From Hormiphora californensis (lineage: Eukaryota > Animalia > Ctenophora), in the NCBI GenBank assembly GCA_020137815.1, contig CM035359.1, positions 6,758,001 through 6,822,000 of the forward strand: DNA of 64,000 nucleotides, written 5' to 3'. Each line of letters starts with the position of its first letter. Positions within the stretch are counted from its first letter, which is position 1. The position numbers were made by a program, and so were the translations under genes. The notes below the pieces were generated by a model that ran no database searches, was not told the DNA's origin, and saw only the letters and a list, made by a program, of their open reading frames with translations. Below are positions 8,260 to 57,221 of the stretch, piece by piece.

Positions 8260-10533
8260 TGAATAAAGATTGAGCCGACTGCAGGGAACAAAGTAAAGTA
8301 CCTAAAATTAAAAAAGTTTGTAGAAAAACACATCAAGCTAGCTAAACAGAAATACTACACAGAATTTTTTGAACGACATGTCACCGACAGCAAAAAGCAG
8401 TGGTCCATGATCAATAGCCTTTTGAATAGAAACCCCAAAACTAGAGTCAACATCAACAAACTTGACTATAAAGACAGGCAACTAACTGACAACCAAGACA
8501 TGACTGAGGCCTTCAATGACTATTTCTCCAATATTGCTAGAAACCTAAAAGGTGATATCCAATTAAGCAATAATATAACCATGCCGAAAAGCAGTAGGTG
8601 CCTCAACGACATGGCACACACAACAGTTACAACCTCTGAAGTTAAGACACTCATCAAATCCTTAAGCGACAAAGCAACATCTGACACTAACATTAAGCCG
8701 CTAAAGGCTTCTAGCTCTGTTATGTCGCAACTCATAGCCTTCGCAATATCAAATTCTATAGCACAAGGAATTGTACCCAGAAAACTAAAAATAGCTAAAG
8801 TTATACCGCTGCACAAAGGGGGGTCAAAAACTGAAATAAAAAATTACAGGCCAATTTCACTACTCTCAGCCTTCTCCAAAATCTACGAAAAAGCAATGCA
8901 ATCCCGACTAGTTAGCCATCTAAAAGCAAACAACATACTCTTTACTTCTCAGTATGGCTTTCGGGCAGGCCACTCCTGTGAACATGCTCTCTTAGATGCC
9001 CAGCACAACTTAATCAACGCTTTAGAACGTAAGCAGGTAGCGGCCCTTCTTCTACTTGATTTTAGCAAAGCTTTTGATATGGTAGAACATAAAATTTTGC
9101 TCGAAAAATTAGAGCACTATGGGGTTAGGGGCGCAAATTTAGAATGGTTCAGCTCATACCTAACAAATAGAAACCAGTATGTACATCTCCAAAACTGTAA
9201 TTCTGAAATGAAAAAAATTGAACACGGAGTTCCACAAGGATCTATCCTTGGACCTACACTTTTTATTATTTATATAAACGACTTACCATTATCTACTAAC
9301 CTAGCTAAATTCTTTATTTTTGCAGATGACTCTAATCTAATGCTTGAGGCAAGTAACCCTATCGAACTGGAGCATAAGTGCAACTTAGCTCTCAATGCAG
9401 TTCATGATTGGGTCTCTGCAAATGGCCTAAAATTGAATGTAGACAAAACAAATTTATTATACTTCACTAATAACAATCAACATAAAGGCTACACCATGTC
9501 TTTGTCACTCAATGGCAAAAATATTACACAAAAAGATGAAGCCAAGTTCCTAGGAGTAATAGTAGACTCTAAACTTAACTGGAATCAACATTTAATTGCT
9601 CTCAAATCAAAAATTTCCCGAAACGCTGGGATACTTTATAAGCTAAGAGAAATTCTCCCAACTAAGGCCCTCAAAAATATCTATCATGGCTTCATTGAAT
9701 CCCATCTGTTATATTGTTCATCAGTATGGGGCACTGTCCCAAGTTCCCGCCTCTCTAATCTATTCTCGGCACAAAAAAAGGCCATACGGGCAATTAGCCC
9801 CGACCACGTAAATTTCTTCTTTAATCCATCCAATAATAAGATTCCCACTCACACCAAACCCATTTTTAGAAAACTCTCCCTCCTATCCCTTCCCAATCTG
9901 ATCTCTAAAAACATTGTAGGGATATTACAAAAGGTCAGACTAGGAGTTGCACCAACGCAAATCACTAGCCTATTCCAACAAAGTATCCTACTCCCCACCT
10001 GTCACAGCACACGGCAGGAGCAGTCAAATGTTTTCGTTTTTCGCTATTTTAGACTAACTCGCTCAAATTACCAAATCGCTTACGTAGGCCCCAGACTCTA
10101 CAATAAAATAGTCCAACTCGCGTCGAAGAATAGCAACAATGACAGTGCAAAACAAACTAAGTTAAGTAACAAATTCTTTGACCCATTCAAAAGAAGCGTC
10201 ACAAAATTACTCCTCGAAATTCAATCTCTCCCCAACCTAGACCTAAACTCAGACGCTGACGCATGGGGAGACACTAATTCTCTAGTATCTCTAGCCAAAT
10301 GAAATCTGATCTCCAATCCCCTCTCTCTCTCTCTACCTCCGGTCTCCCATAGATAGATATATTTCACTGTCAACCACGCGATCCGTACTAAATTCCACCT
10401 AATCCCACTCATATCCAAATAATGTTTATATTTATTCATAGCGTGACAATATAATTACTAATTCTATATAACTGCCCATAAAAGCGGCGACCCCTCCATG
10501 AGAGGTTCTTTGATTGATTGATTGATTGATTGA
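8260..10533 (+). mobile_element. 5'-truncated non-LTR retrotransposon (CR1/L2-group LINE) with (GATT)n tail
   Basis: The reading frame is open from ~8265 through the RT domain to the stop at 10302. A short 3'UTR follows, then a tgattgattgatt tail at 10511-10533. No endonuclease domain is present. Confidence 0.9.
8407..10302 (+). CDS. LINE ORF2 reverse transcriptase (partial)
   Basis: Motifs KIAKVIPLHKGG, NYRPISLL, QYGFR, LDFSKAFD, GVPQGSILGP, FADD and KFLGV. Confidence 0.95.
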   Translation: MINSLLNRNPKTRVNINKLDYKDRQLTDNQDMTEAFNDYFSNIARNLKGDIQLSNNITMPKSSRCLNDMAHTTVTTSEVKTLIKSLSDKATSDTNIKPLKASSSVMSQLIAFAISNSIAQGIVPRKLKIAKVIPLHKGGSKTEIKNYRPISLLSAFSKIYEKAMQSRLVSHLKANNILFTSQYGFRAGHSCEHALLDAQHNLINALERKQVAALLLLDFSKAFDMVEHKILLEKLEHYGVRGANLEWFSSYLTNRNQYVHLQNCNSEMKKIEHGVPQGSILGPTLFIIYINDLPLSTNLAKFFIFADDSNLMLEASNPIELEHKCNLALNAVHDWVSANGLKLNVDKTNLLYFTNNNQHKGYTMSLSLNGKNITQKDEAKFLGVIVDSKLNWNQHLIALKSKISRNAGILYKLREILPTKALKNIYHGFIESHLLYCSSVWGTVPSSRLSNLFSAQKKAIRAISPDHVNFFFNPSNNKIPTHTKPIFRKLSLLSLPNLISKNIVGILQKVRLGVAPTQITSLFQQSILLPTCHSTRQEQSNVFVFRYFRLTRSNYQIAYVGPRLYNKIVQLASKNSNNDSAKQTKLSNKFFDPFKRSVTKLLLEIQSLPNLDLNSDADAWGDTNSLVSLAK

Positions 10534-11504
10534 TAGGTACTCAGCTCAGACCATCATACAATCGTGTGATATTCAATCCAAAGAACGATTGAAAATGAGA
10601 GAGAATTTTTATTGGTGATGGAGCTATCTGTATACGTTTACGATCTGAATCAGATTGAACTCCCGGTTTCTTGATACAATTATTATACCCCTATTACACA
10701 CGTGATGCCAAGAGATTACTATTGGGTGACAAAGAGTGGCCTATAATATTGAAACAATTCGATTTGAATTTGTTTTGGTTTACTATGAAACAGAATGATT
10801 GTAATTGCACTGAACGAATTGGCACAGGACGATTGAAACATATTGCAAGGAACCCATGTGAGGTTCTGTCGAATTATGAAAAACATGATAATATGACATG
10901 ACCGGAATTTAAATGAATGACTAATACATGATGAGGTAAAATTTATTTTTGGAAGCGGTGGTGTACTGTTTATTGAAACGTAACATCTAAAAAGGAAAGT
11001 TTTGAGGTTAAAATAAGTAAAAATCATTCATCGACAAATAAGACGAATTTGATAAGTACACTCATGATCTCTAGTCTACTCCCTCAAATATGTTTTAAAA
11101 ACTAATTTTTACAGATTTATTACAGTATTTTTCTTTGTTTTTAACACTTATGATAGAAATTAAAATAAGAAAATAAACTAGACCGTACCTTAAATTTTCA
11201 ACACAACCATATTGATGATTAATACCAATAACTCAATATATTGTACTTATTTTGCAATCCATAAACATCATAATGAAATTGAATGATCCATTTGTTCCGA
11301 GAAATGACCACAGAGCTTCAGATATTCTTATTCATTTTTATATCATACTTACTAATAATGACTCTTATTTTATTGTACATCCTATTAATTTATACATTTT
11401 CCTCAGTACTCCAAATTATACTTGCAAGTTATACAAAACCAACTTGGAAACTTTCAATTTAATCCATTTTGCCAAATAATAGCTTTTCTGCGGTGTCTGC
11501 ACTA

Positions 11505-13637
11505 TTAAACTCGTTGGGAGGGACTTCCTTCACTTGAGGAGCTACTGGAACTGGAGGAAGTTCTGGAGCTGCGTGTTATCGAGCCTTCACTCAATCTTGT
11601 CGGTTTGTTATCACCTCCCGTCACATTGGGATCTGGAAAAAAGAGTTGTCTTGAAATGTTCATAATTGTATACCATGGAAGACATTAATGTCAGGCCACG
11701 GCTATTTTCCACTGAGACCTGAGATCTCAGGTCTGACTGGAAAATAGCCGTGTCCTGGACCTGAGGTTTAGGCACGACTTTTTCCCCCCAATAGCTGTAA
11801 TGTGGTATGACTGAGGACTATAACATAATCAACAAGATATAAACTTACTGAATATCACTCTATCAGGATCCTCAGGATCCTTGTTTTTCACCTCTCCAAC
11901 AATTTCACTGTAGTGAGACTTCTTGGGCTTTGCAGGAATGTCAGGCTCTTCCAACTCCTGATTGTTCGGGAGATTTCTACTGAGTTTGAGATTTGAGTTG
12001 TTGGAATAATTGTGTAATTAATGCTTACATTTGCTGTGAAATTGATCTGACCCCCTACGTTTACGGACCAACAATAAAGTACCCGGGTAATCACACAAAA
12101 CCGTGATCAAAACGGTACTCCCACTGCATCACAAGCAGCACTGTAAGCAATAAAAGCAGTGCCAGGGGTGCTGATATCCCTTTCAATAACGTTCAGCCAC
12201 GGTCCTTCTGGTACAAATTTCTCTGCAGCGTAGCCGGGCGCTACCCCACAACATACGCATTCGTGTCGCTTTCGGGTCTCTCAAGAGAGCCCCTACCAAT
12301 CATAGCTTAAGGTGGGCTAGACGACATGCGTTAGACCAGGATCGAACCCTGGACCTAATGCATGGGAGGCGAATGACCACTACACCACCCTGCTGTAAGC
12401 AATGTGCAACTAAAATTTACCTCTTTTTTGTTGGGCAAAGAGAAGGGGTTCTTCATAAGTCCAGCCAACTTATTCTTTTTGATTGTGAACACAGAAGCGT
12501 ACGGATTCTCCTGATATTCAATGGATACGTTAAAAATAAATATCTAAAATAGCAAATGATTCAGAGCACAGCAAAATTCGCATTAGCAGCCAGCTGAACT
12601 TCCATGTTGTCAGCTAATTGGTAATAATTTTAATTGGTATCAACTATCAGGACATCAGGTAATAAAACAAGCATATATATATACCGCGAGTGCACATATC
12701 ACTCCCGCTGTGCGCGACCATTTGCACGCTGAAATATGCACTGTGCTTCCGCGGGAGCGTGCAGATATATGGGTAGCGGGATATAAGTGAGAAAAGTGTT
12801 CTCGCAGTGTTTTTACACCTTATTCACACACAAACACACAGAATATGACTGACAAGGTACTACACGACACAAAGTCTGTCAAATTACACTCACTCTCCCT
12901 CTTTCTCTCACTAATTATCCCTTTATCACGTTTTGTTGTTTTCTATTTCCAAGAATTCCAATCTCCCTCTCTTGTATCTCTCTCTTTATCTCTCTCTTCA
13001 TTCCATTGTTAAAGAGTGTCAAAACTTGTTACCCTTGTGTGTAAGAGTTGCAGTAGTGTCTGTTAGTATTTTTGAGTGTGTTTTTGCTTAGTTTGTACCT
13101 TGTTTTGTCACATCTCTCTGTGTGTAATCACCCAAAATTATGATTGTTTTGCTTGTCATGTGTTTTCTCGCGGAATATATACTCAATAACGTCCTGCACG
13201 GCATGTGCAAGCGATCCTATATCGCACTCGTTTCACTCGTGCAATATAGGTGTGAAATGCACTCCAGCTGCGCTGTCGTGCATTTCACCTCCATATACGC
13301 TCTGCAGTGCAGAGCGTATATGGCACGCTTGCACTGCGTGCAGAACGTTATGTACTATATAAAGTTCAGCTGATTCCCCATCAAAATATATGTACTATCA
13401 CACAGGCTGTTACAAACAATAGCTGGGACTGCAGCGTTTGCCAGCCGATTGCTGAGCTATATAATTGGAGCCAGCTACTCACGGCCTTGGTTTCTCCTCC
13501 ACTGAAAGATTTCTTTGTAAAACCATGACAACTATACATAATTATTACCAGCTGGCAGCTATAATAGTACTTACGGGGCAGCGTTTCGACACTTTAAGCG
13601 CCTTCGCTTACGCTCGCCCTTCGGCCCGGTGTGAGAG
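11505..13637 (-). CDS. IgSF cytoplasmic tail C, five small exons with two tyrosine motifs
   Basis: Exons 13637-13575 (phase 2-2, optional), 13501-13483 (2-0), 12510-12421 (0-0; ENPYASV), 11957-11849 (0-1; SHYSEI) and 11632-11505 (ends SPSQRV*). All are GT-AG and mutually in frame. Confidence 0.68.
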
Positions 13638-16600
13638 CTGACAGGCAAGGAACATGTCAAGGCAGCGTAGTTTCTGTAATCGGTGGTTTTGTTCCGACCC
13701 CCGTTTTTTTCAAATGTTTTGAGTCAATTTCGACATGAATTCGTATTACTCGACCATTTTGTGATAAAGATAGATAAAAAGTTTCCTTGAAATACAAAAT
13801 ATAAATATCCGTGTATAATGTATAAGAACTCCTTTATAGAATGGTTTAATTAGAACTGATTTTTACAGTCATTTATGGGTTGTATTTTCGATCAGTAATC
13901 AGTATCTGTGAATGTGATAATCTGTTTCTGTTAATCGCGATGCAAGCTTTCATTTTCTGTTCATGTGATCTGTTCTGTTTTCATGTGAAGATAAAGTTAG
14001 TGAAGTCTATTTTGTTGTCTGTTACTCTGCTACCATTTTCTGGCCTTTGGTGGTTACCGATTCTGTATCTCATGATTTGACGATATGGAAAATCTTCTAA
14101 GCCTTCAGACCAACACCTTTTATCCTATGACTCTTCAAAGGTCATCCACCCTAAGCATCTTCATTATTCCTCCCTGTGTTTCCTCCCTAAGCATCCTCCT
14201 CCTTGTGAGCTGGTTTCCTCACATAAATCCCATGCTCCTTGTTAAACTTGACAAACTGGGATCCCGCCATGCTAAACAAGTGACTCATACTTTGTCTCTT
14301 TCTGAGCGGCTTCTGTGGGGGTGTTCCACCACCGGGTACTGGGGCCACATTTTCACCGCCCTTCTGTTTGTCTGAATCATGTTTTTTGTCTCCCTTTTTA
14401 TCTCCCTTTTTGTCTCCCTTTTCCTCGTCTCTGGCTGAGTCATAATTGCAACACCAACAAGATAATCCACTGAAAAAAGAAGGTTTCGTCTCTTGATGAG
14501 CTGATTCATGGGTGCAGGTGTGAGAGGTATGAGAGGACTTCATATACTGCTGCTCCATATAATGATGATGGCCGTCATTGTTACATTGTCTTTTCCCAAC
14601 CATATATATGGTCATGTCCCCCACCATCTATTGGATAGTTCCCACCATAAATTACATATATATCTGCTACTTTTCCCCCAAATGTACTATCTACTCCGCG
14701 GGATATGTTGTCCACGTGTCTCTGTTCCACAGTAGTACTAATTAAACCCTCTCATTTCGTGGCATGCTCATTGTTCTGTTGTACATGCCAGTCTCTGAGT
14801 CATATTTTACAAAGGGACTGTTGGGAATGCTAAAGAAGTTTGTCAGCCTCATGGATATGGGGACATCCGAAATGGAAGGCCTCTGATCTTGATCCTTGCC
14901 ATCCTTTCCCTTTTTCCCTTTTCCCGCATCTTTAGACTTGATTCGTTCCAGTGATTTATCGGCAGCTGGGTCGGATTTCGATCTTTTGAAGGAGGGGATT
15001 CTGTCACGGAGAGAGCGCTGCCTTTTCGGGGATCCAGAGGGAGACTCACCAGCCGCGGTGGTGGTAGCAGATTTGTTTCGGAAGATGATTGGTGATCGCC
15101 GTTTTTCAACTGGGGATGATCTACCCCTTCCCGCCACAGTCCTTTTCTTGCTAGTGGGAGAATCCTCGATCTTGTTCCTTTGGGATAGCCTTGTAATTTT
15201 AACTGTTGGCTTATCACTCAGCTTCTTCTTTGGTGGGTAGGCTGCCTCATCCTTGTCTTTCTCTGATCCAAGCCCAATGAATGACATGTTAAACTTGGGC
15301 AAGGAAGGGAACGACCATTTTCCGTCCGGTGTTTCGGGCCTCTTTTTTTCTGGTTCTGTGAAACAACAAGGGCAGCATGCTATACAGGATATAAGGCAAG
15401 TCTGTTCAAATGTGTTATCACCCCGTCTGAAAGAGTTACACCACGTTGGAATATGTATATGGGGGACAGCTGGGCCAGTATCATGAAGAACTCATATTAT
15501 GAAGGAGCACATATTATGAAGGAGCTCGCATTATGAAGGAGCACATATTATGAAGGAGCACATATTATGAAGGAGCACATTATGAAGGAGCATTATGGTT
15601 GGACTCACGACACTGGCCAGTGTTATGAAGCAGCAGTATATATTATATGGGAAGTGGGTGATGTGAAATATAAAAAAAGAGGAGCACGTGCTTGTTGAGC
15701 AGGATATATCGTCAAGGTTTTCAAGAGTAAAAAGATGATAACTATTACTGTATTTTGTACTTACTCAAGGGCAGAAGCATCACCATCGTGTTTGTTTTCG
15801 CGGTAGTTTTTGCAGATACAGATACAGATGAACACGAAGCAGATGAAGATAATGATTCCGGCGATAATGCTAGCTGCCACTACGGCAGCTACCTCACTGT
15901 CCTTTAGTCTTATCTCCTCGGCTGAAACATATGAGTTGTTACAATTGTTACAGCTATTAGATGAGGCAGATCATTTTGTGTATATCCATTATTATGATGA
16001 TCTTCAAATAAAAATGATCGTCAATAAGTTTCAAAATAAAGAATTCACATGATTCCACAATTTTGTTATACCTTCAGCCTCAGTAATGATTGTCATCTGG
16101 GAAGTTTCTGTTACGGTTCCGTTGCCATTGGTAGCGGTACACTTTACATCAAAAGTTCCACCTTCAAAAGGTGTCCATGTAATCACAGATTCGCTCTTGA
16201 ATTTCTCCTGTGGAAGATGATAGCTTATTATTTTGAAGATAAAATGGTTTTCTGATTATATGGACTCCATTTATAGATAGGTGAATAAAAGAATAAACAA
16301 TCTATAGATTCAGTATCAAAGTGAGACTTGTAAAGCTAAAGAAAAGGATTAAATCGAATGGACCCACCTTCCCCCACAGTAAAAAGACCTGTTAAGCCTG
16401 CCCACCATTTCTGACAGAATCATAGAAAATTTCATGTGGAAAATTTCATAATTTCTGTCAATTTTCAACACTCATTTACTAGCAGAACAATTTTCTGACA
16501 GAAATGGTTCAGAAACTTTCTGAAAGCACATTCCCATGAAATTTATCACTGCGCTCACATCGGCGTCTCTAGGTTGGACCTGTTTTGTTTCTTTTCCAGT

Positions 16601-19600
16601 CTTATATATGCTTTATTAAGGCTTTTAATGCGTACGCATGCGTTTAATGCTCCGGTATAGTGACCGTACCGATATCATGCCCTTTGGCAATGACCCTGCC
16701 CACCAAAATTCCCCAACCCCTAGTGCCACCTTCTCAATTGTAGTGGTATTCTGAACTGTCTTGTCTGTGTATATGGTCCAAGTGAGGGAGGGAGGTGGGT
16801 ATCCCCTGGCCTCGCACTTCATCTCCATCTCCTCTCCAACAATACCATCAGGAATGGTCATCTTCACGTTGTATGGTGCCTCGCCCGTATCTAAACAGTT
16901 AGGGAGTCATTATCTTGATTTTATATTAACTTTACATCAGCTCTATAATATATCCAGCAATCAGCGTTTTATATGCGACTCAAAAACAGCCGATTGGTCA
17001 ACTTATTGATTCAGCGTTTTATAATTGGGCGATTGTTAGTTAGATAATTAATATTTCCCAGCGAATAATTAAATTAATTAAATATGTGGTCAGCAGTTTT
17101 ACTGTTCGTCATATGATTGGTGTCACATACCCGAACCTGTATAAGAAATTAGTTTGTTAGCTGAGCTTGACATGTCCAGCATCTACATGGAACATGACAC
17201 ACTGAATCCAGTGCAGTCATACACGGCCGCTTGTAGTGGGAATACGGTAATGGAAAACGGAGACACTGTATGAAGGCGCGCAACCGTGGCCAATCGGCGC
17301 GTTAGTACGTGCTGACAAAAAGTACTTTTAACAGATTGTTGACAAAAGCCCTTGCGCGTTACGCAAATTCCGCGCAGATTACTGTATTTTGCGTTACCGT
17401 ATTTTGACTGCAAGCAGCACTGTAATGATCAACCATCAATGGTAGTCCATCATTGATAGTTTACCAGAAACAATAATTGTAATCTACTGCTATAATTGCC
17501 TGGCTAGACTGTGTTTCGGGCGCCTACCTTTACAAATGTAAAGGGAGGGTTAGAACATAACAATGTTATAAATGACCCGATACCTTATTTCAATCAGTTA
17601 GTCCGTCGATAGAACGAAACCCATTATAGCCGGTAGAGTTTGATCTATACCGAACCCTCACAATAAAATGACGGTGTGATCAGCCACAAAAGGCCGTTGA
17701 GTAAATACTAAATGATAAAACTTACCAACGTAAACGTTAACTTCCTCTGATGTCACTCCTGCACTGGTACACTTGTATTTCCCTTCATGGTCAGCATTAG
17801 CCCCCTCAAACACTGCCTCAACGATACCCTGGATAAATATATTGTGGATTATATACCCTGGATAAATTGTGGGTTAATAGATCATTGTCATTCCAGAAAA
17901 TAGTGATCTCCATAAAATTTCAGCTATAAATTCTAACGTTGTGTTTCTTCACACAACAACTTCTTGACTGGAGTGTCTCTGTGTGTACCTTGTATTGTGT
18001 TGGTATCTCAGTAGCAGTCTGACTATCAGGTACAACCGCCTCTCCATCTTTGAACCACGCCACAGCTGCAGTCTTGTCAAAGTTGAGTGGTTTCTCGTTT
18101 TGAACACAGGTCAAGGTAATGGCATCTCCCCGGATAGGGAAGAAATCACCAGTGACTTCAACGAAGGTTTCACGTGCTGGAACGGTTATGAGTTAGAGCT
18201 AATTAATTAATTAATTGATGTCTCCTGGCAGCATAGTGCAACCTACAATTGAAAACGGCATTGTTTACATGTAAATTCTTGGACATTTTACAATCATTTC
18301 ATTAACCGTTTGGGACCCTAGTGCTGCAGTGACGGCGCCATGCTACCGGTTCCCATGGTGTTAATTCTAAACATCCTTCCATCACTTACTAACGGTGAGT
18401 TGCATGGTTGAACTGTCAGTCATCGTCTTATCATCCTTGACAGTATTGTATCCAGTACATGTAACAGTACCCTCATGCCCGTACACTACACTCACTTTGC
18501 CTGAGAAGAAAGTTAACCTATAATTTGAAGGGTTTTTTAATTCGACATTTCCAGTTTTGAGGTTAGATATAGGGTAAGTTGATTCGCAGCTAGACCCTAG
18601 GTATAGTTCAGTACCTTTGCATGTTTTCTCATACGCCCCGGTGCAAGTTCCATCACCCTTATTATCTCCACTGTTTACGTTACTGCTCCAAGTCAGAATA
18701 ACCAGCTGAATAAGTTAAATAATTAATTAACTACTCAATAATAGCTTTAGTCTCAACTTAGACCATGGGGTATATATGTTTCCCAGTACTATTAAAGATG
18801 AATTTGTACGATTTTCCAACTAAATCTAACAAGAATATAGTGTAAAGACATACCAGACTTTCTATTTACTTCAAATGGGAAACCTTGCACATCCGATAGT
18901 CGGACTGCCACATGGTTCGAAAATTAGCCGCGCTGACGTCGAAAAAAAACCTTGCACTTGGCAGGTATAAAATATCAACTTGTATCATATCACTTACATC
19001 GCCGCGTTTCATTTCCACCTTGTAGGGGGCCCTTCCACCGCTGACCTTACAGGTGAACTCAGCCATATCCCCATACTCAAGAGCAGTGGAAGCTGTCGTG
19101 AAACTCTCTACCTGGACAGCCTTGATGACTGCAAGAGCACCGTTCGCAATCTCGTTCTGGTTCAAATTGCTACCATCTTTAGACCTAAGGGGGGGCATGT
19201 GTTTGAAGGTTTCATCTCAAATAGGTTAGGGATATCTCACGTGAGTTCACCACTTGGGTCATTCCCTCCACATGTCTCCATCGCGGACAGTGCCGTCAGC
19301 CCTAAACAGCTGATCCATAGGGTATCTCACAGCTCGATTGTTTATTACTCACTGGTAGCTGTGAGTCGCCTTGCAGTAGTACGTTCCACTGCTCTCCACA
19401 TTGGTTTTGTCGATGGTAATGGAATAGGTATTGTCACTTTTCCTGATGCACCCCGTGGTATCCGCTGACTTGTCGTAGCAGGTCTCTATTGACTGCAGGG
19501 GAACAAAGATATTAGTATAACAGTGTGTATGAGACTTATGAGGTTTTATGTTTACAGGTGTATTAAGGTGCAGGGAGGTAATGCACCTAGCCGACCAAAA

Positions 19601-22600
19601 GAAAACAGGAAGAAAAAATAAAAGAAAAAATAAGTTTCTACATACATACCTCATCTTCCTCAAAGTAGTTCTGCTTGTAAATCGTTACAGATGGAGTAGG
19701 GTAACCTGATGCCTTGCAGACGACAGTGTTGTCCGTTGAATCTTCATCAATCTCAGATGGTACGGATAAAGTCAATGATAGGGCCTCTGATGAAATATAT
19801 GATGAGTGAGTAAATTGACAACGTATTCACGGAGCAATATTCGGGGCCTGGCAAGGCCCCCCGACCCGAATATAACCCAAACTCAACCCATCCCCCCTAA
19901 AACATCCCCCCTAAAACTAAAACAACGGGGCCGAGCCGACAGGCCCTTAATACCAGATGAAAAAAAAACCATTCGGGGCCTGGCAAGGCCCCCCGACCCG
20001 AATATAACCCAAACTCAACCCATCCCCCCTAAAACATCCCCCCTAAAACTAAAACAACGGGGCCGAGCCGACAGGCCCTTAATACCAGATGAAAAAAAAA
20101 CCATAACCATAACCATTCGGGGCCTGGCAAGGCCCCCCGACCCGAATATAACCCAAACTCAACCCATCCCCCCTAAAACATCCCCCCTAAAACTAAAACA
20201 ACGGGGCCGAGCCGACAGGCCCTTAATACCAGATTAAAAAAAACCATAACCATTCGGGGCCTGGCAAGGCCCCCCGACCCGAATATAACCCAAACTCAAC
20301 CCACCCCCCCTAAAACATCCCCCCTAAAACTAAAACAACGGGGCCGAGCCGACAGGCCCTTAATACCAGATGAAAAAAAAACCATTCGGGGCCTGGTAAG
20401 GCCCCCCGACCCGAATATAACCCAAACTCAACCCATCCCCCCTAAAACATCCCCCCTAAAACTAAAACAACGGGGCCGAGCCGACAGGCCCTTAATACCA
20501 GATGAAAAAAAAACCATAAAACCATAACCATAAACCATAACCATAGATATTTTTAGAGTGAAAGTTTTGAAGCCCCCTGAAGTAGTAGAGAGGTGTTCTA
20601 TGGCTCGTTGGAAAGGTCTCGAGGTCCCGCGACGTATAGGGGGTGTGGCGATGGCCATACCCAAACCCATAAGGTGTAGGACGCGAAAAACAGTCAAAAT
20701 AAGGGGTATACAGAACTCGGCAATTAGAAGGAGTAGAAAGGTGTTCTAGGGTGCGTTCGAAAGATCTCGAGGTGCTGAAGTAATTGGAATGTAATTGGAA
20801 GTAATTACATGTAATTAAAATGTAATTACATGTAATTAAAGGGTAATTACATGTAATTAAAATGTCTAAATGACCCAGAATGATAATTTAAACATATTTT
20901 GACATATTTGGAGGCCCTGAAATCAGCGGGTGGCCAAATTTAATCCGGTTTCGGGTCGGCTGACGTAAAAACTCCGCGTTTTGGTCGATCAACCATAAAC
21001 CATAAAACCATAAACCATAACCATAACCATAACCATAGATATTTTTAGAGTGAAAGTTTTGAAGCCCCCTGAAGTAGTAGAGAGGTGTTCTATGGCTCGT
21101 TGGAAAGGTCTCGAGGTCCCGCGACGTATAGGGGGTGTGGCGATGGCCATACCCAAACCTATAAGGGGTAGGACGCGAAAAACAGTCAAAATAAGGGGTA
21201 TGCTGAACTCGGCAATTAGAAGCAGTAGAAAGGTGTTCTAGGGTGCGTTCGAAAGCTCTCGAGATGCTGAAGTAATTGGAATGTAATTGGAAGTAATTAC
21301 ATGTAATTAAAGGGTAATTACATGTAATTAAAGGGTAATTACATGTAATTAAAAGGTCTAAATGACCCCACATGATAATTTAAACATATTTTGACGTATT
21401 TGGAGCAATTGGAAGGAGTAGAAAGGTGTTCTAGGGTGCGTTCGAAAGCTCTCGAGGTGCTGAAGTAATTGGAATGTAATTGGAAGTAATTATACATGTA
21501 ATTAAAGGGTAATTACATGTAATTAAAGGGTAATTACATGTAATTAAAAGGTATATTACATGTAATTAAAAGGTCTGCATGATCCCAAATGACAATTTAA
21601 ACATATTTTGACATATTTTGAGGCCCTGAGACCAGCGGGTGGCCAAATTTAATCAGGTTTCGGGTCGGCTGACGTAAAAACTCCGCGTTTTGGTCGAGGT
21701 AAACCATAAACCATAAACCATAAACCATAGATATTTTTAGAGTGAAAGTTTTGAAGCCCCCTGAAGTAGTAGAGAGGTGTTCTATGGCTCGTTGGAAAGG
21801 TCTCGAGGTCCCGCGACGTATAGGGGGTGTGGCGATGGCCATACCCAAACCTATAAGGGGTAGGACGCGAAAAACAGTCAAAATAAGGGGTATACAGAAC
21901 TCGGCAATTGGAAGGAGTAGAAAGGTGTTATAGGGTGCGTTCGAAAGCTCTCGAGGTGCTGAAGTAATTGGAATGTAATTGGAAGTAATTACATGTAATT
22001 AAAGCGTAATTACATGTAATTAAAGGGTAATTACATGTAATTAAAAGGTCCAAATGACCCCAAATGACAATTCAGACATATTTTGACATCTTTGGAGGCC
22101 CTGAGACAAGCGGGTGGCCAAATTTAATCCGGTTTCGGGTCGGCTGACGTAAAAACTCCGCGTTTTGGTCGAGATAACCATAAACCATAACCATAGATAT
22201 TTTTAGAGTGAAAGTTTTGAAGCCCCCTGAAGTAGTAGAGAGGTGTTCTATGGCTCGTTGGAAAGGTCTCGAGGTCCCGCGACGTATAGGGGGTGTGGCG
22301 ATGGCCATACCCAAACCTATAAGGGGTAGGACGCGAAAAACAGTCAAAATAAGGGGTATACAGAACTCAGCAATTAGAAGGAGTAGAAAGGTGTTCTAGG
22401 GTGCGTTCGAAAGCTCTCGAGGTGCTGAAGTAATTGGAATGTAATTGGAAGTAATCATACTACTTACTATTCAAATTGTCAGTGCTACATCACCTAGCAA
22501 CTACACCTGCACGTGCAATTATTAGAGCAACTTAGAAACCTCACTCCCAGTTGCAGTTTTGGGTACTAAGGGAAATTCAATTCTGCACGTGCATTCTTTT

Positions 22601-25600
22601 ACTTTTGTCCTGATGTCTAACTCTTCAACCCCAAGCGCTATTCGGCAACGGTCATCTGGGTCCAGGAAAACTGCTGCTGTCAGGGAGCAGGCTAGAGATT
22701 ATGACAGATTACGCCAACGTGTTCAAGCGAGCCAATCAACGACTACTGATAGCTTTACCCAACATCGACCAAGGGTGATTACTCCAGTTGAATATAGAAA
22801 TCTCCGAATCGGCTACATAGCTTAGCGGCCACGTTTTCACGGGATGAGTTTCTGGAACAGCACTGCACCTCCCTGACATTGATCTCTTAAATTCGCACCT
22901 TGACATTGTCAGGAAGCCCAGAGCGTACAACAACATGGGTATAAGGGAGAAAGTGAGAGATAGGCTAGGAACGGATGGTGCAGGTGATGTCAGCGTTCCC
23001 TAATCAAGCTACCATTTCCCCAAAATTCGCCCGTAGGGCGAACGGGCCTACTAGTTACATATAATTAAAATGTAATTACATGTAATTAAAGGGTAATTAC
23101 ATGTAATTAAAAGGTCTAAATGACCCAGAATGATAATTTAAACATATTTTGACATATTTGGAGGCCCTGAGACCAGCGGGTGGCCAAATTTATTCCGGTT
23201 TCGGGTCGGCTGACGTAAAAACTCCGCGTTTTGGTCGAGGTAACCATAAAACCATAAAACCATAAAACCATAGATATTTTTAGAGTGAAAGTTTTGAAGC
23301 CCCCTGAAGTAGTAGAGAGGTGTTCTATGGCTCGTTGGAAAGGTCTCGAGGTCCCGCGACGTATAGGGGGTGTGGCGATGGCCATACCCAAACCTATAAG
23401 GGGTAGGACGCGAAAAACAGTCAAAATAAGGGGTATACAGAACTCGGCAATTAGAAGGAGTAGAAAGGTGTTCTAGGGTGCGTTCGAAAGCTCTCGAGGT
23501 GCTGAAGTAATTGGAATGTAATTGGAAGTAATTACATGTAATTAAAATGTAATTACATGCAATTAAAGGGTAATTACATGTAATTAAAAGGTCTAAATGA
23601 CCCCAAATGACAATTTAGACATATTTTGACATATTTGGAGGCTCCGAGACCAGCGAGTGGCCAAATTTAATCAGGTTTCGGGTCGGCTGACGTAAAAACT
23701 CCGCGTTTTGGTCGAGGTAAAACCATAAACCATAAAACCATAAACCATAGATATTTTTAGAGTGAAAGTTTTGAAGCCCCCTGAAGTAGTAGAGAGGTGT
23801 TCTATGGCTCGTTGGAAAGGTCTCGAGGTCCCGCGACGTATAGGGGGTGTGGCGATGGCCATACCCAAACCTATAAGGGGTAGGACGCGAAAAACAGTCA
23901 AAATAAGGGGTATGCTGAACTCGGCAATTAGAAGCAGTAGAAAGGTGTTCTAGGGTGCGTTCGAAAGCTCTCGAGGTACTGAAGTAATTGGAATGTAATT
24001 GGAAGTAATTACATGTAATTAAAATGTAATTACATGTAATTAAAGGGTAATTACATGTAATTAAAAGGTCTAAATGACCCCAAATGACAATTTAGACATA
24101 TTTTGACATATTTGGAGGCCCTGAGACCAGCGGGTGGCCAAATTTAATCAGGTTTCGGGGCGGCTGACGTAAAAACTCCGCGTTTTGGTCGAGATATGTA
24201 ATGTATGTTTTACAAGAAAAATGAAAAGGGTAGTTTAAAGCAGGAAAGATTGACCAGCTAAGGGCTATGGTAATGTGTGTGAAGGCAATGCAATATTTCA
24301 CTGCATTGGTAATAATTAGTGCTCCGTGGCCTAAATTTGGTGCTCTGGGGGGGGGACAATGTTAAATATCACATACCAGTAACGATGACTTCAGTGGTTT
24401 TAGAGATCCAGCTGTCACTGTTGTACGCAAAGCACTGGTAAATGCCACTGTCACTTGACTTGGGGCTGTCGATGGGGAAGGTAATAGCCTTACCATTCTT
24501 CATCCAGTTACCCTGGAAACAATAATGTAGTTATTAATTGCCCTGGAGACAATAATGTAGTTATTAATTGCCCTGCATAACTCATTTGCTATACATGCTG
24601 GCCAACACTCAAAAATTTGAAAAAAAACCCTTGTTGAGGTTCTGGCGACTGGCAATATCATGTGATGTTCATATCCTCTGAGGATATCTTTTAACATTAA
24701 AAAGGACGTAATTTAAATTTACTTACATCTCCATTGGATGTTTTGCATGTCAGTGAGAGGGCTCCCTCGGATTCCCCATCCTCATACAGATAGTAGTTGG
24801 TAGGCTCTTGTGTGAACTGTACTGGGGACTCCGCTGAAGTGGTATAATTGGGTTGGTGTGATATCAGTACCGGAGTAGATAACTTAGCTTTACAAGAGAT
24901 TCAAGAGATTCAAATTAAAAAGTACTTAACAATAATATTATTGTCATATAACTATAGGTAAAAAGGTGGGAGTAGGAGGGGTAGAGAGAGGGTTCAGAGG
25001 GGTAATAATAACCAAGTTGTGAGTTATCAAGTACTCAGTGAACTGCAGTTTGTGAACTGTAATTGTCAACCCTTTCTCATCTCGTCCTCAGGTTTAAAAA
25101 TAACAATCCACAAACCTTGATCGATTCCCAAGCACAAAATAATTATAAAATTCACATACCTTGTGACATTGATGCTGTAGCGACATTACTTTTACAGTTG
25201 CCCTCTCCAATACACGCTTTACAGGTGTAGGAACCGGATGTGGTTGTTTTCAGAGTCCTACCGTTGTCAGTTAGCCCAGTGGTTACCTCCGTGCCGTCGC
25301 TTGCCCACCAGGTGTAGGTGGGTACCGGGTTAGACTCTGATAACGGGGATAATTGGGGATTTAGATTGGAATACTGTAAGATGTCTTTATTACACCACAG
25401 TATTATCCTGGAGGCAACACCTCAGTTTCATTTCTCACCGTCTTTATATCCGATGGTTCCACAGCAAAGTGTAGCAGTCTGTCCATCTGTCACCTTGTCT
25501 CCGTTAAGAGCCAGAGTGGTTGATGTATACTCGATATTTCCAAACTCTTGCTTAACTTCGACCTTGTACTCGTAGGCTACTTGTGTGACAACCCCGTCGG

Positions 25601-27130
25601 TGAGGGTAGCCTTCACTTTGCACTCGTATGTTCCAGCCATCCGGGATTTTATGTTGAACAACACCTAGTAGTGGTTTAGGCTGCATGTATAAGGTCCAAA
25701 TAAGGAATTAAACCGCTCTTTCTGATACAGATCACACAGGTTAGTCCATCGAGATGTTTAGAATATCGAAGGATATGACAGCAATGCTTTGGAGCGGTGT
25801 TTGTCTATGACTTACCAGAGTGTTCTCCTTAACAGTCAAATCAGCGATTGAGTCGACCTTGATTTCTGCAGATCCATGTACAATGAAAGCGTTGGAATCG
25901 CTTACAAGCTCACCATCTAGGAAATTGGAAGATTTAGATCTGAGTAGACAATTCACTGAATGATCAAGACTTAGGTATAAATACTTTACTACTAAAAACA
26001 CAAAGTATCATTAAATTATTTAATCATTGATCTGCCGTAAAATCCTTGTGGAGGCAGTTTTCACAGTCCTTACTTTTGTACCACATTATTTCACAGTCCT
26101 TACCTTTGTACCATTCGATGGAGTATTCAGGATTGAAGGTTCCAGAAACCTCACAATCAAGTCCGGTCCTGACTGCCTTCTGAGCAGTGTCAATCTTGAT
26201 CGTCGTTGTAGTTAACTCAATCTCAGTGTGAGCTGAAATAAAGTTAAATAAGGAATTCATTTCCTTTGCTCGACCCTACTATAACACATGGTAATACATG
26301 GTAACACATGGTAACACATGGTAACGCATGGTAACACATGGTAACGGAAACAGAATCACTATACTTACTGTATACGTTGACAGAGGCTACATTGCTATAA
26401 ATGGTCATGTCCCCGTTGACAGCCTTGCACTGGTAGAATCCCGCGTGATCCTCGCTGGCACTGTCAACTGTGATCACGTTGCTGTTGCTGTTGTACAACT
26501 CCGTCATTACCCTGGGAAATGTTGGTTTATTATTATACCCTGGGCAGGGAAGTACCCTGGGCAGGGAAGTACCCTGGGCAGGGAAATATTTGTTTATTAT
26601 TATACCAGCTGCAAGGAACGTAATTGGTAATCGCGAGCTCCCGCAGAGGCCAGCCATGGCTTCGTAACTACACGTGCATGGTACTTACATGGTGGGGATG
26701 GTACTTTGCTTGTACCACGTGTAGGTAGCTGTTTCATCCGCTACACATGTCAGGGTTAATTTGGATCCCTTGTTAACGATGACAGAGGAGGGGTTGGTGG
26801 TTAGAGAGAATCCTTGAACACATCCCAGCACTGCTGCACACAACCTGTCAATATGAAACGAGATGATCCAGTGATCCTAGATTCCTAGGCTGGAGTTACT
26901 CCAGTGGAGTAGGACAACAGCAGGGAAAATACTGCAAGGGATCTCTAGAACTGTGGAGAATCATGTATGGTGATAATAACACCAAAAATTTAAAACCTTT
27001 TCAACAATTAAAGCATTATGAGGTGGGACAAGAAAGCAATAATATTTTAAGCATGCTAAATGCTAGTCAAATAAAATTAACAAGTAAATTAAACCATTAC
27101 TTACAGTGCGAGACCCAGATTCCTTTTCAT
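11505..27130 (-). CDS. Type I membrane IgSF receptor: signal peptide, 8 Ig-like domains, one TM, alternative cytoplasmic tails (full span to tail C)
   Basis: ATG 27130 gives MKRNLGLALLCAAVLGCVQG/FSL. About 18 in-frame GT-AG exons encode paired-Cys Ig motifs (LTLTC...WYK...HAGFYQC; AGTYEC; SGSYTC; DSGIYQC; SSGTYYC; HEGTVTC; HEGKYKC; CEARGYPPP...VKCTATN). The TM exon 15921-15765 reads VAAVVAASIIAGIIIFICFVFICICIC and ends in phase 2. Confidence 0.88.
12152..12393 (-). mobile_element. tRNA(Gly-like)-derived SINE with TSD
   Basis: The minus strand starts GCAGGGTGGTGTAGTGGTC (A box), then cgcctcccatgc, then GGTTCGATCC (B box), and ends in a T-run. TSD (c)tgtaagcaat at 12142-12151 and 12394-12403. 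Confidence 0.85.
14187..14469 (-). CDS. IgSF alternative terminal exon B (~93 aa)
   Basis: Acceptor cttttttcag at 14470, phase 2, in frame: GLSCWCCNYDSARDEEK...LFSMAGSQFVKFNKEHGIYVRKPAHKEEDA*. The C-terminal motif is homologous to exon A. Confidence 0.62.
14742..15426 (-). CDS. IgSF alternative terminal exon A (Cys cluster plus basic/Ser-rich tail, ~227 aa)
   Basis: Acceptor ctctttcag at 15427, phase 2, in frame with the TM exon: RGDNTFEQTCLISCIACCPCCF...FFSIPNSPFVKYDSETGMYNRTMSMPRNERV*. The exon is 685 nt with no internal stop. Confidence 0.72.
15481..15595. repeat. ~19-bp minisatellite (catattatgaaggagca) just upstream of the exon A acceptor
   Basis: About 6 degenerate copies are visible. 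Confidence 0.85.
19839..24193 (-). mobile_element. Bipartite tandem array of a Helentron/DINE-1-like element: 5 x ~132-bp end module plus ~6.5 x ~480-bp module, inside an IgSF intron
   Basis: Short units start at ~19839, 19971, 20116, 20252 and 20385 and carry the hairpin ggggcctggcaaggcccc and ccgacccgaa. Long units carry the inverted ttcgggtcgg and gtaattacat repeats. Units are joined by (aaccat)n. Confidence 0.8.
22455..23054 (+). mobile_element. Non-autonomous Helitron (600 bp)
   Basis: 5' TC, 3' CTAG and subterminal hairpin cgcccgtagggcg. It is inserted between A and T of gaagtaa|ttacat with no TSD; the empty site is visible in neighbouring array units. Confidence 0.93.
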
Positions 27131-28357: not shown

Positions 28358-28518
28358 TTAGTCTCTGCAGAGAGATGGAGGTGGTGTATCATTGTTTAGT
28401 CTCTGCAGAGAGATGGAGGTGGTGTATCATTGTTTAGTCTCTGCAGAGAGATGGAGGTGGTGTATCATTGTTTAGTCTCTGCAGAGAGATGGGGGTGGTG
28501 TATCATTGTTTAGTCTTA
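28358..28518. repeat. 38-bp tandem repeat (4 copies) overlapping the 7TM gene stop codon
   Basis: Unit ttagtctctgcagagagatggaggtggtgtatcattgt at 28358, 28396, 28434 and 28472. Confidence 0.95.
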
Positions 28519-29617
28519 GAATCCAGCTTGCAGGGACTTGTTGGCATGCAGGGAGCTGAAGGTTTTGTTGGACTTGTTGCCGGTTGCGATACCTAGCTAC
28601 TCCCGCCTTCACCATCGTATAAGTGAGGAAAGTAGCCTCGTGGAGCGAGATTTGAACTGAGAGCTTCACGACGTCACACATGGATAATTTACCCATTTGA
28701 TACAGTGCCCTAATTACAAATGAACAGCTATCTGCCTCATTGGCGACTATCATATTCAACCTGAAACAGCTACTCGCATTGTATGGTCTGAGGGAGAGAA
28801 GGGTGATATCGTATATGATCTCAACGAGGGAGTTGGCTACGGTCAGCATACTAATCCTCTGCCGGGCACCAGGCACAAGCTTATGGGAGGCCATGTAGTT
28901 TTTAAATGAGATTAAGATATAGATAACACAGCAGAACATGCTCACCCCAAAACTACCAAGTATAGCGTAGTTAGTTATTGTAGTCCTGGTGGACTGCCGG
29001 TCTTGAAAGAAGCACAGCGAGTGACTGCTGTTCGCCTCGATGACAAACCATACTGTGAATATGGTCGTGAAGAGAAAGACAACAAACCAACTTAAAATTG
29101 AAGCAACTCGAACAATGGAGTTTTTGTGGATTCTAAACCTCAGCGGGAACGCTATCATATAGATTTGAAACACATAAACATTAATAGAGCTAAGCTTGAA
29201 AGCTCCTAAGCTGCACTGTGCCAATATTAGCATAATGGGTTTAACAAAAAAGTAGCGGGATGGTATGTAAGCGTCTAGCATACATCCAACTTGTAGTAAC
29301 CCGTTAACACAGCACCAAAAGGGCTGGTTACATCGCAACAATCTCAGTGTCCAGTTCTCTCTCTTTTTCAACCTCAACAGAAGAGAGATGGCAGACATTA
29401 TCACCATGGCAATAGGGTAACCTAGCCATATAAGGAGCTCTGTCACTGGAAACACAATGGAATCTTTCCTATCGGGTACAACACCATCGTAACCCTTGGT
29501 CGAGTTCGCCAGGAATGCAGTCATCCTGTCCCAGGCATCAGTTCCGTCCACCTCCTCTACCAACTCTGCAGAGAGGAGGATGACTGTAACAAACACCTCC
29601 AATGAGGGGTAGGTCAT
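28472..29617 (-). CDS. Intronless divergent 7TM receptor (rhodopsin-class-like GPCR), 381 aa, with N-terminal signal-like peptide
   Basis: About 7 hydrophobic segments. The TM3/ICL2 region FQIYMIAFPLRFR resembles DRY.AI.FPLRY. TM4 has a Trp (SILSWFVV) and ECL2 has a Cys. Canonical DRY and NPxxY are missing. Confidence 0.72.
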   Translation of the reverse strand: MTYPSLEVFVTVILLSAELVEEVDGTDAWDRMTAFLANSTKGYDGVVPDRKDSIVFPVTELLIWLGYPIAMVIMSAISLLLRLKKRENWTLRLLRCNQPFWCCVNGLLQVGCMLDAYIPSRYFFVKPIMLILAQCSLGAFKLSSINVYVFQIYMIAFPLRFRIHKNSIVRVASILSWFVVFLFTTIFTVWFVIEANSSHSLCFFQDRQSTRTTITNYAILGSFGVSMFCCVIYILISFKNYMASHKLVPGARQRISMLTVANSLVEIIYDITLLSLRPYNASSCFRLNMIVANEADSCSFVIRALYQMGKLSMCDVVKLSVQISLHEATFLTYTMVKAGVARYRNRQQVQQNLQLPACQQVPASWILRLNNDTPPPSLCRD

Positions 29618-30139
29618 GTTGATGGCTGCTATCCCCTGACCCTCCTCAAGCAGCTTTCTTGCGTCCTAAAACAGTGGAGGAGGGGGAGTTTAAATGGATA
29701 TGTCGATAATGATGTAATGCAATGTAATAGAACTGCAAGCTATACACACACAACCTACCCATTTGTTTATACGTTCCCCATCGACATCCAGTAGCACCTC
29801 AGCTATCTCGTCTTTTCTCCAGAACCCAGAACTATTCTCATCAACACTTGATAGATTCCTCAAGCCAGAAATTATCGAACTCAGCTCTGCGTTTATCATG
29901 ACATGCAATTAGCTACAATTATGATGCTTTATAGCATGCCCTCTGACAGGGAAACAGCTTTATTAGCTGAAGACAAAGCTAATAAAGCTGTTTCTTCATG
30001 AAGACAAAGCTTCCTTGGGAAAAATAAGCAGTGAGAACATTGAAACAAAGCTAACTGAAACATAAAGCCATCAATTATCTACTGAGTACTGTTCACTGGA
30101 TTATAAAATTCAGTATTCTTATTACTTTCTACCACTACG

Positions 30140-31907: not shown

Positions 31908-32519
31908 TTAACCAATGCAAGTGAAGCGAAGCAGTAAGTTAGAGTTTTTTCGTGCCCGGTCACTCGAATGAATAATTCATTGATCTCAGTCGGAGAGTCT
32001 CAGATCCTCAGAACGTACCTACTGTACTTTTATAGTACTAATTATAGCACAATATAATAGAAAAATGGTAGGGTGGGGGCGCACTCAGATTATTTGCCCC
32101 GATCCCCCGGTAGCATTATCCTCTCCCGCCTCCGCCCCAATTAATTGGATACTAGGACTATAATAGTTGCGGGGAGTAGTTTCTCCCATAACCACTTTTA
32201 TGGGCTGGTTCACTTGCTGAGGGCCGCACCCGGGCCGCACCAGTACTGTTATACTGTTGGTACAGCATGTGTGTGCCAGTCTCCAATTTCTCTTGTACCT
32301 TTTAGCACAGTGTGAGTGTATTTTCAGGCAGTACAGCTGTAAACCAGTCACATATGGAAAAGACTCCTCCCATTTCCCATCCTGGCCCAGCTAGGCTACC
32401 CCGCTAGCTAGGCTATCCCACTAGCACTATAACTGGCTACTGTAGCAGACCCTTAAACGAAGATGACAGGTGATGAATCCATATCAAGTGTTCTATGGCA
32501 TGCGACTCTTCCGAAATGG

Positions 32520-36915: not shown

Positions 36916-57221
<20,306 letters not shown>

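Follow-up and report, generated by a model that had tools for sequence, protein, structure and literature searches.

Does a single ctenophore gene place three different cytoplasmic ends behind one extracellular region, and how would the choice between them be made? We addressed this in a 64,000-nucleotide (nt) stretch of the Hormiphora californensis genome (GenBank assembly GCA_020137815.1, contig CM035359.1, positions 6,758,001 to 6,822,000 of the forward strand), referred to here as the window. Its minus strand carries a gene for a predicted single-pass receptor with eight immunoglobulin (Ig)-like units. A first-pass annotation of the window, made from the DNA letters, had proposed that the membrane exon of this gene is followed by one of three tails, A, B or C. 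We find that environmental RNA joins the donor of the membrane exon to the acceptors of all three.

One donor is joined to three tails in RNA

The membrane exon (exon 19, 15921-15765) ends in phase 2, and its donor at 15765 is the branch point for the three tails. As proposed, acceptors at 15426, 14469, 13637 and 13501 all continue this exon in frame, to three stop codons, and tails A and B are single exons that open with the Cys clusters CIACCPCC and SCWCC, respectively. The tail exons and 3' untranslated regions (UTRs) are listed below, with X1 to X5 denoting RNA runs.

14742..15426, minus: tail A, 228 aa, with a Cys cluster, a long basic Ser-rich disordered stretch, a C-terminal helix plus predicted β-hairpin, and a C-terminal Val; acceptor 15426, stop 14744-14742; joint in X2 and X5; relatives at 28-92%
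14470..14741, minus: spacer of 272 nt, likely untranslated 3' sequence in isoform A and intronic in B and C; unspliced contigs across 14469/14470 in X1, X2 and X3
14187..14469, minus: tail B, 94 aa, with a Cys cluster, a charged 12-nt repeat, a predicted β-hairpin as in A, and an acidic end; acceptor 14469, stop 14189-14187; joint in X5
13830..14186, minus: 3' UTR past tail B, likely common to A, lower bound approximate; RNA cover to 13914, candidate poly(A) hexamers at 13886-13838
13575..13637, minus: candidate 63-nt frame-keeping exon, unsupported, with its acceptor within a dispersed repeat; open, phase 2-2; no joint or cover; acceptor score 3.4 (weak)
13483..13501, minus: tail C exon 1, a 19-nt microexon; both joints in X3
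12421..12510, minus: tail C exon 2, with NPYASV and NPF motifs; joints in X1 and X3
11849..11957, minus: tail C exon 3, with the SHYSEI motif; joints in X1 and X3
11505..11632, minus: tail C exon 4, coding part, Ser-rich with a C-terminal Val; joint in X1 and X3
11359..11504, minus: 3' UTR of isoform C; AATAAA at 11374, X1 contig ends at 11359

The RNA came from five environmental runs of three studies, with 6-9% of sampled words present. We compared contigs of X1, X2, X3 and X5 over 10400-19790 (15 of 16 joints listed) and, in a second comparison, contigs of X1, X3, X4 and X5 over 13350-15950. Donor 15765 is joined to 15426 (tail A) in X2 and X5, to 14469 (tail B) in X5, and to 13501 (tail C) in X3. 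In the second comparison the listed joints were again these three from 15765, with none to 13637; over this range X4 gave no joint. Thus, more than one junction is in use, and the outcome of a single junction did not occur. X5 carries both the A joint and the B joint, while X3 combines the direct C joint with cover of both the A and B exons. A 66-nt record of X3 consists of 36 nt of the membrane exon followed by 30 unplaced letters, and an adjoining record ends exactly at 14469; the pair would fit a membrane exon to B joint, and the depth sum agrees.

All four joints required for tail C are present in RNA. Both joints of the 19-nt microexon occur in X3 (depth 8.9 each), the second of these, 13483 to 12510, being listed as 12507/13482, where the two letters between reflect a silent third-position change. 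The joints 12421 to 11957 and 11849 to 11632 each occur in X1 and X3. Upstream, the seven joints between exons 12 to 19 are also present in RNA contigs. The first-pass annotation had drawn tail C as a five-exon chain carrying NPYASV and SHYSEI. Both motifs and the stop at 11507-11505 hold, and four exons are seen, but the 63-nt exon at 13637-13575 is without RNA support: in contig data from all four runs there is no joint to it and no cover at 13524-13610, and the single membrane exon to C joint seen bypasses it; coming from contigs only, this gap counts as absence of evidence. Tail C is 115 aa long, or 136 aa if this exon is included. The only records that match the stretch at 13626-13660 pass into unlike sequence on both sides, the mark of a dispersed repeat.

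The coding differences between RNA and window indicate that all three tails matter as protein. Among the differences listed (40 of 152 rows and 40 of 85 rows, non-coding rows excluded) 35 are coding, for which a silent fraction of 0.19-0.23 is expected. The silent ones number 5 of 5 in exon 19, 5 of 5 in tail A, 15 of 17 in tail B and 8 of 8 in tail C, so that 28 of the 30 listed in the tails are silent. The excess holds for each tail separately among the listed rows (P 6e-4 for A, 2e-9 for B, 5e-6 for C). In addition, the length changes listed in the coding part of B (3, 3 and 12 nt) all keep the frame; in the UTR, by contrast, the listed lengths are not divisible by three. Tails A, B and C are therefore all under protein-level constraint.

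Probably two 3' ends rather than three

The tails had been attributed to alternative last exons with three poly(A) sites. In the 272 nt between the A stop and the B acceptor none of eight types of poly(A) hexamer occurs. Contigs of X3 and X5 extend beyond the A stop, and the B acceptor is crossed unspliced in X1 (14406-14580), X3 (14440-14535) and X2 (14275-14648); 14649-14728 has no cover from the listed contigs. Neighbouring introns, for example 15438-15698, have zero RNA depth. Because the spacer lacks a hexamer and contigs run past the A stop and unspliced across the B acceptor, A and B likely belong to a single last exon that has two acceptors and a common poly(A) site near 13830-13900. 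Isoform C has its own 3' end, with AATAAA at 11374 and a contig end at 11359. The 3' ends are thus likely two rather than three, and the proposal of three poly(A) sites is not confirmed. The broader idea of one ectodomain with a switched tail stands, carried by three RNA joints through acceptor choice and by the silent-site excess, while the alternative-last-exon scheme needs correction.

The acceptors score 0.3 (A), 8.1 (B) and 5.3 (C), against 6.0-12.3 for constitutive acceptors, which are in-sample values since these sites were used for building the matrix. A weakest acceptor at A with stronger ones at B and C is the pattern expected of regulated choice.

Several other features lie among the tails. 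Exon A contains a strong donor at 15050 (minus, score 8.5, phase 1) that is compatible with the last tail C exon (11632) and could yield a hybrid A/C tail; the sole contig covering the site, in X5, reads through it. The bases around the B stop are duplicated in frame shortly downstream (14151-14200, minus), and the region past this stop is insertion-rich among RNA contigs. Upstream of its acceptor the tail B frame stays open for 52 codons (14470-14627, minus), with Met codons and a His-rich stretch, and in this interval there is no in-frame acceptor upstream of the tail B acceptor. Self-complementary, palindromic intron elements resembling miniature inverted-repeat transposable elements lie at 11692-11757 and 13176-13361. 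An Rfam search over 11000-19800 gave 0 matches.

Gene structure and ectodomain

From 27130 to 15765 on the minus strand, 19 exons join into 2612 nt, or 870 codons, with 0 stops and with all introns of GT..AG type.

27105..27130, minus: exon 1, start codon and beginning of the signal peptide; frame, splice sites; hydrophobic window over residues 4-25
26689..26844, minus: exon 2, signal peptide end and Ig1 first half; frame, splice sites; Pfam Ig_3 E 9e-07
26369..26511, minus: exon 3, Ig1 second half; frame, splice sites; Ig_2 E 3.9e-05
26104..26232, minus: exon 4, Ig2 first part; frame, splice sites
25816..25916, minus: exon 5, Ig2 middle; frame, splice sites
25439..25664, minus: exon 6, Ig2 end and Ig3 start; frame, splice sites; Ig_3 E 0.08
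25160..25336, minus: exon 7, Ig3 second half; frame, splice sites; Ig_2 E 8.3e-05
24727..24833, minus: exon 8, Ig4 first half; frame, splice sites
24377..24512, minus: exon 9, Ig4 second half; frame, splice sites; I-set E 0.0013
19650..19786, minus: exon 10, Ig5 first half, past a 4.6-kb repeat-filled intron; frame, splice sites; Ig_2 E 0.0015
19353..19492, minus: exon 11, Ig5 second half; frame, splice sites; I-set E 0.0005; RNA cover in X3
18998..19184, minus: exon 12, Ig5 end and Ig6 start; frame, splice sites; RNA joint to 18705 in X1, X3 and X5
18615..18705, minus: exon 13, Ig6 middle; frame, splice sites; RNA joints both sides
18390..18500, minus: exon 14, Ig6 end; frame, splice sites; RNA joints both sides
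17989..18176, minus: exon 15, Ig7 first part; frame, splice sites; RNA joints both sides
17726..17828, minus: exon 16, Ig7 end; frame, splice sites; RNA joints both sides; no Pfam match alone
16730..16890, minus: exon 17, Ig8 first half; frame, splice sites; Ig_3 E 3.3e-05; RNA joints to exon 18
16072..16207, minus: exon 18, Ig8 second half; frame, splice sites; RNA joint to 15921 in X1, X2 and X5
15765..15921, minus: exon 19, membrane helix, four Cys at the membrane edge, short shared linker; frame, phase-2 donor; hydropathy

The 870-residue product has a hydrophobic window at residues 4-25 and one further hydrophobic stretch at about 824-860; hydropathy windows above 1.6 are confined to starts 4-7 and 824-842. 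By hydropathy, this is the signal peptide and single membrane helix of a type I membrane protein. Eight Ig-like units fill residues 21-816, each split over 2-3 exons. All eight have a Cys pair and seven have the Trp, which unit 5 lacks. Of the 18 ectodomain exons, 12 were scanned in Pfam and 11 of these gave an Ig-family match at E<=0.1, the best at 9e-07; since an exon contains half a domain, every match stays below the curated cut-off. Among solved structures, exon 17 comes closest to the I-set domains of adhesion proteins (Dscam, Robo, contactin) and exon 2 to mixed Ig entries; no single family is prominent. A profile of the gene's own domains matched 16 of 2030 window pieces, all of them its own exons. 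Word-indexed protein searches, which are weak evidence when empty, returned no full-length protein bearing tail A or the membrane exon.

Exon 17 has a second donor at about 16670. The added stretch (16670-16729, minus) encodes 20 in-frame codons, Gly/Trp-rich, within Ig8. Exon 18 is joined from 16730 in X2 and from about 16670 in X3 (listed as 16206/16669), and this donor pair is a second splice choice, located in the ectodomain.

Tail anatomy and the relatives of tail A

We compared the three tails with one another and with protein databases. A and B, which both open with a Cys cluster, share a block of 24 residues, 10 of them identical (E 6e-06; 0 of 5000 shuffles). Separate AlphaFold runs placed strands at A206-209/214-217 and B73-76/81-84, in identical register, with predicted local distance difference test (pLDDT) values of 64-71 for hairpin residues 206-217 of A and 70-79 for 73-84 of B; the rest of both tails is predicted to be mostly disordered. 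The proposal that B is an old, shortened duplicate of A is moderately supported by these likenesses. Similarity of C to either is at chance level (A-C 1401 of 5000 shuffles, B-C 3938 of 5000), and a motif common to C and A/B was accordingly dropped.

Tail A and its relatives carry Arg-x-x-Ser sites, and a C-terminal Val ends 5 of 6 distinct sequences. Tail B has an acidic C-terminus. Tail C has two Tyr, 42 residues apart, with Val or Ile at +3 (YASV, YSEI), an NPF motif and a Ser-rich end with Val. Cys clusters of this kind can be palmitoylated, Tyr motifs can bind SH2 domains or clathrin adaptors, NPF motifs can bind EH domains, and such C-termini can act as PDZ-like ends. Palmitoylation of the Cys clusters in A and B is a prediction. 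Pfam has no family for tails A or B, and none of the tails showed a catalytic domain or a folded signalling domain, either in Pfam or in the tail models. An ESM Atlas search with the A hairpin block gave no usable match, which is neutral as evidence, and a plasmid search with exon A gave no match and is uninformative.

An exhaustive search with tail A found 3 matches among 1.84 billion representatives (92%, 32% and 34%). A profile search retained 5 of 2327 candidates, adding P0006 (28%) and P0007 (91%). P0007 is Pleurobrachia bachei EP00116_P011507 (sb/3471769), a stand-alone 178-aa model that starts at an internal Met and is without ectodomain, membrane helix or functional name. This ctenophore match agrees with the earlier placing of the gene in an early-branching animal. 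The more distant P0002, P0003 and P0006 (28-34%), probably from other ctenophores, retain the Cys cluster, a central Arg/Asp/Ser-Pro block and the C-terminal block. In P0002 and P0006 the similarity starts directly after a Phe-Arg pair whose codons, in the window, contain the acceptor, which suggests, from the protein level only, the same phase-2 splice as in the window. Metagenome scans for DNA around the tail A relatives found nothing.

A model for the tail switch and its alternatives

We think it probable that this is one gene for an eight-Ig single-pass protein, whose three spliced tails couple one adhesive surface to different internal partners; the gene structure, taken by itself, is very likely correct. 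The mechanism would most likely resemble that of fly Neuroglian, by analogy, with one adhesive ectodomain and tails exchanged by splicing. The nearest and weakest acceptor, A, and the stronger one, B, 957 nt farther, would both lead into a single last exon that has one poly(A) region; when both are skipped, splicing would go on to the 19-nt microexon and from there to the C exons, which have a poly(A) site of their own. The inside would thus be chosen by splice-acceptor competition and poly(A) choice. A and B may bend back to the membrane by way of a second Cys cluster, which is probably palmitoylated, and the hairpin that ends both may dock a cortical or junctional scaffold. A would add a basic, Ser-rich, kinase-site-like linker of about 130 residues and the C-terminal Val, with B as a stripped-down form. 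C, without Cys cluster or hairpin, would be a phosphotyrosine- or endocytosis-coupled form through its two Tyr-x-x-hydrophobic motifs and NPF. The switch would probably serve to place and couple one adhesion molecule in a cell-type-specific way, as for Neuroglian 167/180.

Several points weigh against this model. Each joint is supported by one contig per run, with 20-53 letters on its short side, and no single run directly shows all three. The RNA is mixed environmental material, 0-8% different from the window, and may pool several individuals or sister species. Its support concerns exons 11-19 and the tails, exons 1-10 resting on frame and splice sites. The adhesion role is taken from the architecture only. 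The tail models are of low confidence overall (predicted template modelling scores, pTM, 0.14 and 0.21). B goes undetected (E 1.3 and 6.7) by a profile built from three distant relatives of A, and at the DNA level A and B are no more alike than chance would give (251 of 500 shuffles), so that the duplication claim depends on one 24-residue block. Relatives of B or C were neither found nor readable beside the distant A copies.

Two alternatives would do away with the switch altogether. If only one tail were functional, the other joints would be splicing noise into cryptic acceptors, and indeed open frames after chance acceptors are common (at least 40 open codons after 15 of 146 YAG sites), the A acceptor scores poorly, and contigs per joint are few. 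This reading is very improbable and already largely refuted. The joints coincide with predicted sites and the coding differences are nearly all silent, which argues against chance; the silent excess holds in each tail separately, with frame-keeping length changes in B; A is conserved at ~30% identity with its motif blocks; and C needs four precise joints, all of which were seen. Tail A, or A and B, might instead be a separate intronless gene, as the 178-aa P. bachei model starting at an internal Met implies and as might follow from the lack of a full-length tail A protein in the word-indexed search. We give this little credence as well, since membrane exon to A joints occur in two studies (X2, X5), conservation begins upstream of the Met of P0007, directly at the acceptor, and a null from a word-indexed search is weak evidence.

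The remaining alternatives keep the three tails and give them other roles. The tails may be sorting addresses rather than signalling outputs, with C internalised and turned over and A and B lipid-anchored in particular membrane domains. YASV, YSEI and NPF fit clathrin-adaptor and EH-domain ligands, and no tail has a catalytic or folded signalling domain. The hairpin block and Arg-x-x-Ser sites are, however, kept in ~30% relatives and suggest specific partners beyond sorting, and we regard a purely sorting role as rather unlikely. Less plausible still is that the receptor serves immunity or self-recognition, C being its inhibitory form, with an immunoreceptor tyrosine-based inhibition motif (ITIM), and A and B its non-inhibitory ones, as in Botryllus FcoR3/4 or Hydractinia Alr. 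The first-pass annotation had noted that SHYSEI fits the ITIM consensus and had suggested an adhesion, recognition or allorecognition-type system. SHYSEI does fit the broad consensus [I/L/V/S]xYxx[I/V/L] (PMC9546547; published systems are cited, here and below, from excerpts of the papers), but it fails the strict I/L/VxYxxI/L/V of PMC12582321 and arises in 8% of shuffles; the ITIM match is a weak one. Both tail C Tyr have I/L/V at +3, which occurred in 912 of 50000 shuffles (1.8%), in a test chosen after the data were seen. Among the RNA runs the motif is kept with a silent change in X1 only, and our literature search surfaced no paper on a ctenophore SHP, ctenophores being mentioned in none of the 12 papers listed. 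Splicing also swaps tails in Alr1/Alr6 and FcoR3/4 (PMC9546547, PMC12582321). Against allorecognition, the gene is present in one copy in the window and Pleurobrachia individuals fuse (N=8, PMC11565835). Domains 5-8, the part sampled, are as divergent as the tails and not more so (over 14 listed pieces, 63 of 1907 bases differ, 3.3%, against 3.1-3.9%); recognition variation would be expected in domains 1-4. The allorecognition proposal is not supported.

Returning to the adhesion model, a bolder version of it is a tentative possibility: that ctenophores independently built a three-way tail switch, with an ancient A, a duplicate B nested in the 3' UTR of A, and a tandem-phosphotyrosine C, the choice among them differing by cell type (nerve net, comb cells, epithelium or phagocytes, for example). 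If true, ctenophores would have in the A/B hairpin a junction-docking motif not described before, and the gene would offer a handle on how comb jelly cells are wired or glued together. Isoform-specific probes would tell which cell types use which tail, and the conserved motif could serve in finding junction partners. The gene structure also corrects a public P. bachei model, in which tail A stands as a gene by itself.

Other features of the window

Two arrays, a tandem one with 5 copies of 132 bp and another of 466-477 bp, fill the 4.6-kb intron 9 (19839-24193). An insert at about 22500-23050 interrupts these arrays and contains an open reading frame (ORF) at 22526-22825, with a near copy at 39494-39844. 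Sharing the strand of the Ig gene and lying directly upstream of it, a 397-aa hydrophobic ORF (28472-29665, minus) resembles a multi-pass receptor; it has no Pfam match at E<=0.1 and ends in a 38-bp tandem repeat. At 44135-48233 (plus) lies a gene for a receptor with LDLa repeats and seven transmembrane helices (Pfam Ldl_recept_a E 1.3e-08, 7tm_1 E 7.6e-09), whose C-terminal tail holds ~30 copies of an acidic 12-residue repeat. By eye, ORFs at 8263-10302 (plus) and 32457-33707 (plus) resemble reverse transcriptases of retroelements without long terminal repeats, and the former lies 1.1 kb past the 3' end of isoform C.

Comparison with known tail-switching receptors

We compared the gene to immunoglobulin superfamily (IgSF) receptors whose tails are altered by splicing. 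CEACAM1 is an Ig-only adhesion molecule with long and short tail forms. HEMCAM, as far as its excerpted source goes, is another, and the short form of the two is essentially a truncation, whereas the ctenophore tails are each substantial and separately constrained. Neuroglian, of the L1 family, has one IgSF ectodomain with two spliced intracellular ends, Nrg167 and Nrg180, used in differing cell types and sites (PMC10635556), and one form has a PDZ-type end (PMC3627646). L1 proteins combine six Ig domains with FN3 repeats; the ctenophore gene instead has eight Ig-like units, with no FN3 match in the 12 of 18 ectodomain exons scanned, and three tails, none of whose translations contains the FIGQY ankyrin-binding motif described in the excerpts of PMC3627646. 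Its swap occurs about 15 residues past the membrane, replacing nearly the whole tail.

Closer in phylogeny, Hydractinia Alr1 and Alr6 are non-bilaterian IgSF receptors with alternative cytoplasmic tails, and some Alr tails carry ITIM-like motifs. Alr proteins have 1-3 Ig domains plus an FN3-like fold, encoded as one exon per domain at 41 clustered loci, and their alternative forms swap the membrane helix too (PMC9546547). The ctenophore domains are spread over 2-3 exons, the gene has no paralogue in the 64-kb window, and one membrane exon is shared. In Botryllus FcoR3 and FcoR4, splicing alters tail Tyr motifs behind one ectodomain, through intron retention and an exchange of ITIM for a hemITAM (half of a tyrosine-based activation motif of immunoreceptors), in paired polymorphic families with Sushi domains (PMC12582321); the ctenophore gene uses acceptor choice, and its A and B are without such a Tyr motif. 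Shrimp Dscam (Penaeus monodon) offers mutually exclusive last-exon variants, 44.1 and 44.2, on 10 Ig and 6 FN3 domains with large ectodomain exon arrays (PMC6851185). The ctenophore gene has neither that domain set nor such arrays, its own-domain profile matching its own exons only.

By its predicted architecture, the ctenophore gene thus falls outside the L1, Dscam and Alr families. Our literature search found no description of this gene or of a ctenophore IgSF protein with alternative tails, within coverage that leaves out most subscription journals and genome-paper supplements that may list the gene unnamed. Tail exchange on an IgSF ectodomain is a known principle, and the gene itself is undescribed. 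What is unusual relative to these systems is a near-complete three-way swap directly behind the membrane, with one tail probably nested in the 3' UTR of another, in a ctenophore.

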